Under the pieces are notes generated by a model. The model ran no database searches, was not told the DNA's origin, and saw nothing but the letters and a program-made list of their open reading frames with translations. A program made the position numbers and the translations under genes. From Escherichia coli 042 (GTDB lineage Bacteria; Pseudomonadota; Gammaproteobacteria; Enterobacterales; Enterobacteriaceae), in the NCBI RefSeq assembly GCF_000027125.1, contig NC_017626.1: 64,000 bases of DNA. One strand, written 5' to 3'. Below are positions 62,750 through 63,040 of this stretch, piece by piece (positions within the stretch are counted from its first letter, which is position 1; each line of letters starts with the position of its first letter).

Positions 62750-63040
62750 CCTGCATGAGGGTGACGCACGAACCGCTGTCTGCGGTTATATGCCCGATCA
62801 AGATCCTGCAAAACGATCGGGACCGCGGATCATAGCCTAAACTGCGCAAGAGATCTTCTGTTTCTCACAGATTTTCCCGATTTATCCACAGGACTTTCCA
62901 GAACTCGCTAAGTGTAAACGATCCTGCCGCAGGGCGGGCACGATTTACGCCGCATATTGGAAAATTTAATGACCATAGACAAAAATTGGCTTAATCGATC
63001 TAATAAAGATCCAGGACGATCCTTGCGCTTTACCCGTCAG
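62750..63040. promoter_or_regulatory. dnaA promoter region with a GATC cluster and a DnaA box
   Basis: About 8 GATC sites in roughly 290 bp; consensus DnaA box ttatccaca at 62882..62890. Confidence 0.8.

Follow-up and report, generated by a model that had tools for sequence, protein, structure and literature searches.

The 64,000-nucleotide stretch of the E. coli 042 chromosome analysed here (the window) carries at its right end the minus-strand genes gyrB, recF, dnaN and dnaA and the plus-strand genes rpmH, rnpA and yidD. The divergent genes dnaA and rpmH, the latter encoding ribosomal protein L34, are separated by an intergenic region of 606 bp, which holds nine GATC sites, all of them within positions 62750-63040, as well as a consensus DnaA box (Table 1). 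For dnaA, the list of open reading frames gives an upstream GTG at 62684 as the start, while the start used in K-12 corresponds to 62672. The sequence-only reading which preceded this work had put the site between divergent dnaA and rpmH, and the starts and strands of both genes agree with this.

We aligned positions 62600-63350 with the E. coli K-12 MG1655 genome, a comparison that the sequence-only reading had itself suggested as a check. The alignment clearly showed 743 identical bases out of 751 (99%), and none of the eight single-base differences falls in a GATC, in the DnaA box or in the -10 elements; one of them turns residue 23 of the small protein YsdD from His to Arg. The gene order dnaA-ysdD-rpmH and the spacing from dnaA to rpmH are the same as in the K-12 annotation. 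In terms of the K-12 dnaA promoter region (dnaAp1/dnaAp2, DnaA box 1; Hansen et al. 1982, Campbell and Kleckner 1990, Speck et al. 1999), the 042 stretch is thus the same locus, with the same nine GATCs, box and flanking genes. Furthermore, the promoter region was found in 5424 of the 5426 complete E. coli genomes, and it is 100% identical in several other strains.

Table 1. Features of the dnaA-rpmH region of E. coli 042, in window coordinates
Feature	Position	Strand	Basis or remarks
dnaA coding sequence	61269..62672	-	467 aa, GTG start at 62672; 99.8% identity to the K-12 protein (tblastn)
Cluster of nine GATCs (Dam sites)	62796..63021	.	226 bp; matches the nine GATCs in 225 bp of PMC5835720
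Three leader GATCs just downstream of the p2 start	62796..62818	-	sites changed in the published m3SeqA mutant
CCGCGG discriminator ("Travers box") of dnaA p2	62823-62828	-	sequence
dnaA p2 core	62823..62834	-	-10 TATGAT is the reverse complement of 62829-62834 and overlaps the GATC at 62828-62831
dnaA p2 -35 region, with the GATC at 62852-62855	62851..62857	-	16-17 bp upstream of the -10
Weaker DnaA-box-like site TTTCTCACA	62861..62869	+	same orientation as box 1, 21 bp away; identical in 23/27 genera
Consensus DnaA box TTATCCACA (box 1)	62882..62890	+	between p1 and p2, 210-218 bp upstream of the dnaA start
Candidate dnaA p1 -10 TACACT (reverse complement of 62911-62916), with the GATC at 62920-62923 just upstream	62911..62923	-	conserved block
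Small ORF ysdD (26 aa, MTIDKNWLNRSNKDPGRSLRFTRQPV)	62969..63049	+	b4757 in K-12; overlaps the distal GATC triplet, stop codon in TATAAT
Distal GATC triplet	62997..63021	.	11 and 10 bp apart; last GATC fused to a plus-strand promoter -35 (GATCCTTGCG)
Sigma-70-type promoter TTGCGC-16 bp-TATAAT, towards rpmH	63023..63050	+	sequence, orientation, conservation
Second promoter-like site TTGACT-17-TACAAT	63148..63176	+	about 100 bp before rpmH; consensus scan, 10/12 matches
rpmH (ribosomal protein L34), divergent neighbour of dnaA	63279..63419	+	ORF list and K-12 annotation

A generic sigma-70 consensus scan reported neither dnaA p1 nor dnaA p2, because the -35 elements of both are poor, and the two promoters were therefore placed from their conserved -10 blocks and from the published description of the region (PMC5835720). 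As judged from the core sequence, p2 transcription would start at about 62821-62822, roughly 150 nt before the GTG. The p1 -10 is a candidate which we placed by means of a conserved block and of the distance between the promoters, p1 being said, in work by Hansen et al. from 1982, to start about 80 bp upstream of p2. This candidate and the GATC adjoining it are kept in Enterobacteriaceae only, in 17 and 15, respectively, of the 27 genera aligned (see below).

Box 1 lies exactly where the sequence-only reading had located a consensus DnaA box, and on the plus strand. It is flanked by the conserved p2 -10 and the candidate p1 -10, and it is identical in all 27 genera, as is TTATCCACAGG, i.e., the box together with the following GG. 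In the 64-kb window, TTATCCACA is the sole match to TTATNCACA, with 2.0 matches expected, so that it is not above chance by itself; the box owes its significance to its position and conservation, not to match statistics. The weaker site TTTCTCACA is probably the published box 2, which has been described beside box 1 (PMC5835720; 10.1101/2023.03.30.533363).

The nine GATCs start at 62796, 62802, 62815, 62828, 62852, 62920, 62997, 63008 and 63018. Their clustering was recognized correctly by the sequence-only reading, and its number of sites ("about eight") has to be changed to nine. The density within the cluster is 39.8 GATCs per kb vs. 4.36 per kb in the window as a whole (279 GATCs in 64 kb), i.e., about nine times higher; over the 291 bp from 62750 to 63040, GATC is about seven times denser than in the window. 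When the window was shuffled 1000 times with dinucleotide composition preserved, the tightest run of nine GATCs never shrank to 226 bp or less (minimum 256, median 711), and a Poisson estimate for at least nine GATCs in 291 bp gave 7.5e-6 per window. The comparison with background density, likewise proposed by that reading, thus clearly shows an excess. Along the cluster, the spacings are 6, 13, 13 and 24 bp in the proximal group, then 68 and 77 bp, and finally 11 and 10 bp in the distal group. SeqA reportedly binds cooperatively to GATC pairs up to about three helical turns apart (an observation attributed to Brendler et al. in 2000), and the spacings within both the proximal and the distal group fall into this range. 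The hemimethylated GATCs to which SeqA binds are closely spaced ones (PMC5835720).

The published data on K-12 describe the same set of elements. According to the review by Hansen and Atlung, the dnaA promoter region has nine GATC sites packed into 225 bp, and DnaA represses both of its promoters, which are separated by a DnaA box; the -10 and the -35 of dnaA2p each contain a GATC, methylation stimulates this promoter two-fold, and a CCGCGG discriminator is located just upstream of the dnaA2p +1 (PMC5835720). The dnaA region stays hemimethylated for about one fifth of the doubling time due to SeqA-dependent sequestration after fork passage (PMC5835720, PMC13337833); the finding of prolonged hemimethylation in K-12 is credited to Campbell and Kleckner 1990 and Lu et al. 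1994 (cited in PMC5835720 and PMC13337833). Five GATCs at p2 are relevant to SeqA, three of them closely spaced just downstream of the start, and these three leader sites shift the phase of the p2 oscillation, being dispensable for the oscillation itself (10.1101/2023.03.30.533363). Earlier work cited in the same preprint indicates that the -10 and -35 GATCs add little to SeqA repression (10.1101/2023.03.30.533363). The SeqA effect is therefore modest in size. The number of GATCs, the box position, the GATCs in the -10 and -35 of p2 and the CCGCGG in 042 all agree with PMC5835720, thus supporting the match to the known autoregulated, SeqA-sequestered dnaA promoter that had been proposed from the sequence.

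To place these elements in a wider context, the rpmH start was searched for by a DNA-pattern scan, which yielded 120 loci from Enterobacterales, Vibrionales, Pasteurellales and Orbales; 88 of them hold the dnaA start and 400 bp upstream of it. The expected GATC counts were taken from the rest of each locus, and since the loci share ancestry, the counts are not independent. In the 400 bp upstream of dnaA, 486 GATCs were observed vs. 98.5 expected in Enterobacterales (59 loci, median 9), and 90 vs. 25.8 in Vibrionales (13 loci, median 6), an enrichment of 3.5-5 fold; the TTATNCACA box is present in 59/59 and 13/13 loci, respectively. Among the 16 palindromic 4-mers, GATC shows the only strong enrichment, and no other reaches 4 fold. 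The only other one at 2 fold or above is TATA, with 2.1 fold in Enterobacterales and 3.8 fold in Vibrionales, in line with the AT-richness of promoter DNA. In the 15 Pasteurellales loci (L003, L006, L016, L026, L055, L056, L059, L062, L063, L071, L073, L076, L089, L094 and L105), the 400 bp upstream of dnaA show no GATC enrichment (21 observed vs. 19.1 expected, median 1, 0-3 sites per locus) and no TTATNCACA box (0/15). The order Pasteurellales also has Dam and SeqA; should this apply to the genomes of these 15 loci, dnaA sequestration would not be universal among bacteria bearing Dam and SeqA.

A finer comparison was based on an alignment of 27 genera with E. coli-like spacing. The p2 -10 with its GATC, the p2 -35 GATC, the last distal GATC and the box are each identical in 27/27 genera, and GATC columns have an average identity of 81% vs. 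66% for other columns. The leader GATCs behave differently: their exact positions are identical in only 4-13 of the 27 genera, while a GATC is found within 8 aligned columns in 18-25 of them. This pattern of turnover suggests selection for local GATC density, with the sites in promoter elements fixed in position. The box, one promoter and many GATCs are reportedly conserved in Salmonella and Serratia (work by Skovgaard and Hansen from 1987); the present comparison quantifies which GATCs are fixed (the two p2 core sites and the distal triplet) and which, the leader sites, turn over in position.

Given these data, one reading can be dismissed outright, namely that chance or base composition accounts for the GATC density of this intergenic DNA and that the DnaA box is a random 9-mer match: a lone TTATNCACA in 64 kb is indeed no more than predicted (87 of 100 shuffles have at least one), but no shuffle packs nine GATCs as tightly, no GC-containing palindromic 4-mer other than GATC (about 5 fold) is enriched in front of dnaA in the 59 Enterobacterales loci, and the box and four GATCs are invariant in 27 genera where the surrounding columns vary.

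Taken together, the features, their statistical excess, the identity with K-12 and the conservation across genera, all observed in the present analysis, allow us to regard the stretch as the E. coli dnaA regulatory region, common to the divergent rpmH operon, with a probability of about 97%. Nothing contradicts its identification as the dnaA promoter region; the element is already known, a textbook one, and brings no new biology, but it can be recognized from raw sequence with exact coordinates.

By analogy with K-12, whose literature is the source for DnaA binding, the effect of methylation and SeqA sequestration, the region would work as follows. Leftward transcription of dnaA would begin at two promoters, p1, which is distal and weak, and p2, which is proximal and stronger. 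DnaA would bind to the consensus box that separates them as well as to weaker sites nearby, and DnaA-ATP would repress both promoters, so that the protein autoregulates its own synthesis. Of the nine GATCs, five would be part of p2, namely those in its -10 and -35 and the three just past the start, and their full methylation by Dam would modestly stimulate this promoter. About 1 minute after initiation at oriC, the replication fork would copy the region, turning the GATCs hemimethylated; SeqA would then bind the closely spaced hemimethylated sites, delay remethylation for about ten minutes and shut off dnaA transcription, such that no new initiator would be made straight after initiation. In other words, synthesis of the initiator would be turned down by the initiator itself and be briefly off once its gene has been copied.

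The same combination of GATCs and a DnaA box raises the question of a replication origin, or of a still-functional secondary one. Most bacteria have their oriC adjacent to dnaA, between rpmH and dnaN, so that the site corresponds to the ancestral origin position, and its GATC density (nine in 226 bp) is like that of K-12 oriC (11 in 232 bp), accompanied by a consensus DnaA box. However, the box is the only consensus one, and an AT-rich unwinding element is absent, the GC content being 0.40-0.56 in every 100-bp window of the region. The oriC 13-mer GATCTNTTNTTTT is matched only once, with two mismatches, and such matches occur at near-chance frequency (27 found vs. 18.5 expected in the window); no 14-mer is common to the region and K-12 oriC. 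Moreover, the annotated K-12 oriC (3925744-3925975) is situated between mnmG and mioC, at a distance of 42,015 bp from the start of dnaA and of about 40.7 kb from the end of the window, outside it. The single consensus box, the lack of an AT-rich stretch, the chance-level 13-mer, the lack of sequence common with oriC and the distance of 42 kb led us to reject the origin hypothesis, which we consider to have next to no chance of being true; the sequence-only reading, which held that this is not oriC and that oriC is roughly 40 kb away, was right on both points.

E. coli oriC resembles the dnaA regulatory region in GATC density and in having a consensus DnaA box, and both have been reported to stay hemimethylated for a long time after replication; what sets oriC apart are its several consensus boxes and its AT-rich unwinding region. 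The mioC promoter, situated beside oriC, has been compared with dnaA p2 and is similar in being repressed through an array of closely spaced DnaA boxes, but in contrast to the dnaA promoter it is not sequestered, and it titrates about eight DnaA monomers vs. three or four (PMC5835720).

The distal part of the GATC cluster deserves separate consideration, being better conserved than any other part outside dnaA p2. Its three GATCs are kept in 26, 26 and 27 of the 27 genera, and GATCCTTGCG, in which the last of them adjoins TTGCGC, is identical in 25/27. The element GATCCTTGCGC-16 bp-TATAAT spans 63018-63050; its TATAAT is identical in 27/27 genera and its TTGCGC in 22/27. Judging by sequence, orientation and conservation, TTGCGC-16-TATAAT would be a distal rpmH promoter, to which we tentatively assign the three GATCs. 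As the distal GATCs adjoin the conserved -35 directed towards rpmH, the cluster appears to span both divergent promoter sets and not that of dnaA alone. The only promoter found here by the generic scan was the rpmH-proximal TTGACT/TACAAT site. A terminator-like hairpin followed by a T-run lies at 63058-63084 on the plus strand, right after the presumed start of the distal rpmH promoter and about 200 bp before rpmH; it might attenuate the distal rpmH-directed transcript.

The distal GATCs also fall within ysdD, which is listed as a new small protein gene (PMC6001520), and it can be asked whether they are conserved for the K-D-P and R-S-L-R-F codons of YsdD and not for a role in methylation or in the promoter. 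All three sites are inside the ORF, whose conserved residues KDP and RSLRF derive from the GATC triplet and from the -35 element of the promoter directed at rpmH; Escherichia, Citrobacter and a few further genera share the motif RSNKDPGRSLRF. But most of the 27 genera, among them Leclercia, Enterobacter cloacae, Klebsiella, Mixta, Tatumella and several Pantoea, either have no ATG or have an early stop in the ORF, which also varies and has indels in its first third, while the DNA block GATCC-N-GATCCTTGCGCTTT...TATAAT is still kept in 25-27 of 27. Since the ORF is broken where the DNA is kept, conservation acts at the DNA level, and the conserved residues are better explained as its by-product. 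A coding constraint of YsdD as the cause of the conservation of the distal GATCs was therefore rejected and seems to us very improbable.

A better case can be made for an alternative that complements the assignment to the dnaA regulatory region: the distal triplet may regulate, through Dam methylation or SeqA, the rightward rpmH-rnpA promoter rather than dnaA. A plus-strand promoter with an invariant -10 has its -35 joined directly to the last GATC; the triplet lies upstream of both dnaA starts, by 175-200 bp in the case of p2 and by about 90-115 bp in that of the presumed p1 start; and spacings of 10-11 bp put the sites one helical turn apart, a geometry suiting SeqA. On the other hand, SeqA bound to the triplet might just as well form a filament that reaches towards dnaA p1 and p2, the two roles not being exclusive, and a literature search for the rpmH promoter together with GATC or SeqA found nothing relevant. 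We consider such regulation possible, although the odds are against it. Slightly more speculative is the prediction drawn from the arrangement of these sites, namely that through Dam and SeqA the triplet makes transcription of rpmH-rnpA (L34 and the RNase P protein), and probably also of yidD and yidC downstream, respond to fork passage. If this were true, the GATC island would be a bidirectional cell-cycle switch and not an element of dnaA only.

A second GATC cluster was observed within the dnaA coding sequence, at 61474-62019, with 14 sites in 546 bp and nine of them in 262 bp, i.e., at about the density of the promoter cluster. The coding sequence has 15 GATCs vs. 8.7 expected from synonymous-codon shuffles (0/300 shuffles reach 15). 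This excess corresponds to a z of about 3 in E. coli and about 1.9-2.6 in E. albertii, Citrobacter, Leclercia and Enterobacter, and no excess over synonymous-codon shuffles was seen in Yersinia, Hafnia, Photorhabdus and Vibrio. The excess thus fades, and the idea that the coding-sequence cluster is part of the same conserved device as the promoter cluster is not supported beyond close relatives. The Rfam family AsdA (RF02674), an RNA antisense to the dnaA mRNA, has a full-length match at 62082-62162 on the plus strand (101.9 bits vs. a gathering score of 52), facing the 5′ third of dnaA.

Several observations concern the rest of the window. Its first part, positions 1-14892, has no counterpart in the K-12 stretch compared (3835100-3885057). 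Its ORFs code for a tip-complex protein of type III secretion (138-1319), for a regulator that contains Trans_reg_C and TPR domains (1522-3219) and, on the minus strand, for an inverse autotransporter of 3806 aa with 23 Big_1 repeats (3271-14691); this part appears to resemble the eip/eilA/air island, which is located beside selC in enteroaggregative strains. A 3.3-kb insertion relative to K-12 occupies 25926-29235, between uhpA and ilvN, and contains two ORFs on the minus strand, 26028-27464 (478 aa) and 27678-28985 (435 aa), neither of which has a match in Pfam, PADLOC or NCBIfam; only 142 of the 5426 complete E. coli genomes have most of the insertion, and in these the two ORFs bear the annotation hypothetical protein. 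The gene dnaN (beta clamp, 60164-61264, minus strand) may differ from K-12 in a segment that would read VQPHEPG in the latter, which would be a strain-level substitution. Finally, Rfam matches above the gathering score were obtained for istR (31552-31681, minus strand), the ROSE_2 thermoregulator (46359-46431, minus strand), which K-12 synteny places upstream of ibpA, and for the sRNA ES036 (56563-56605, plus strand), located just downstream of gyrB; all three are expected for this part of the chromosome.
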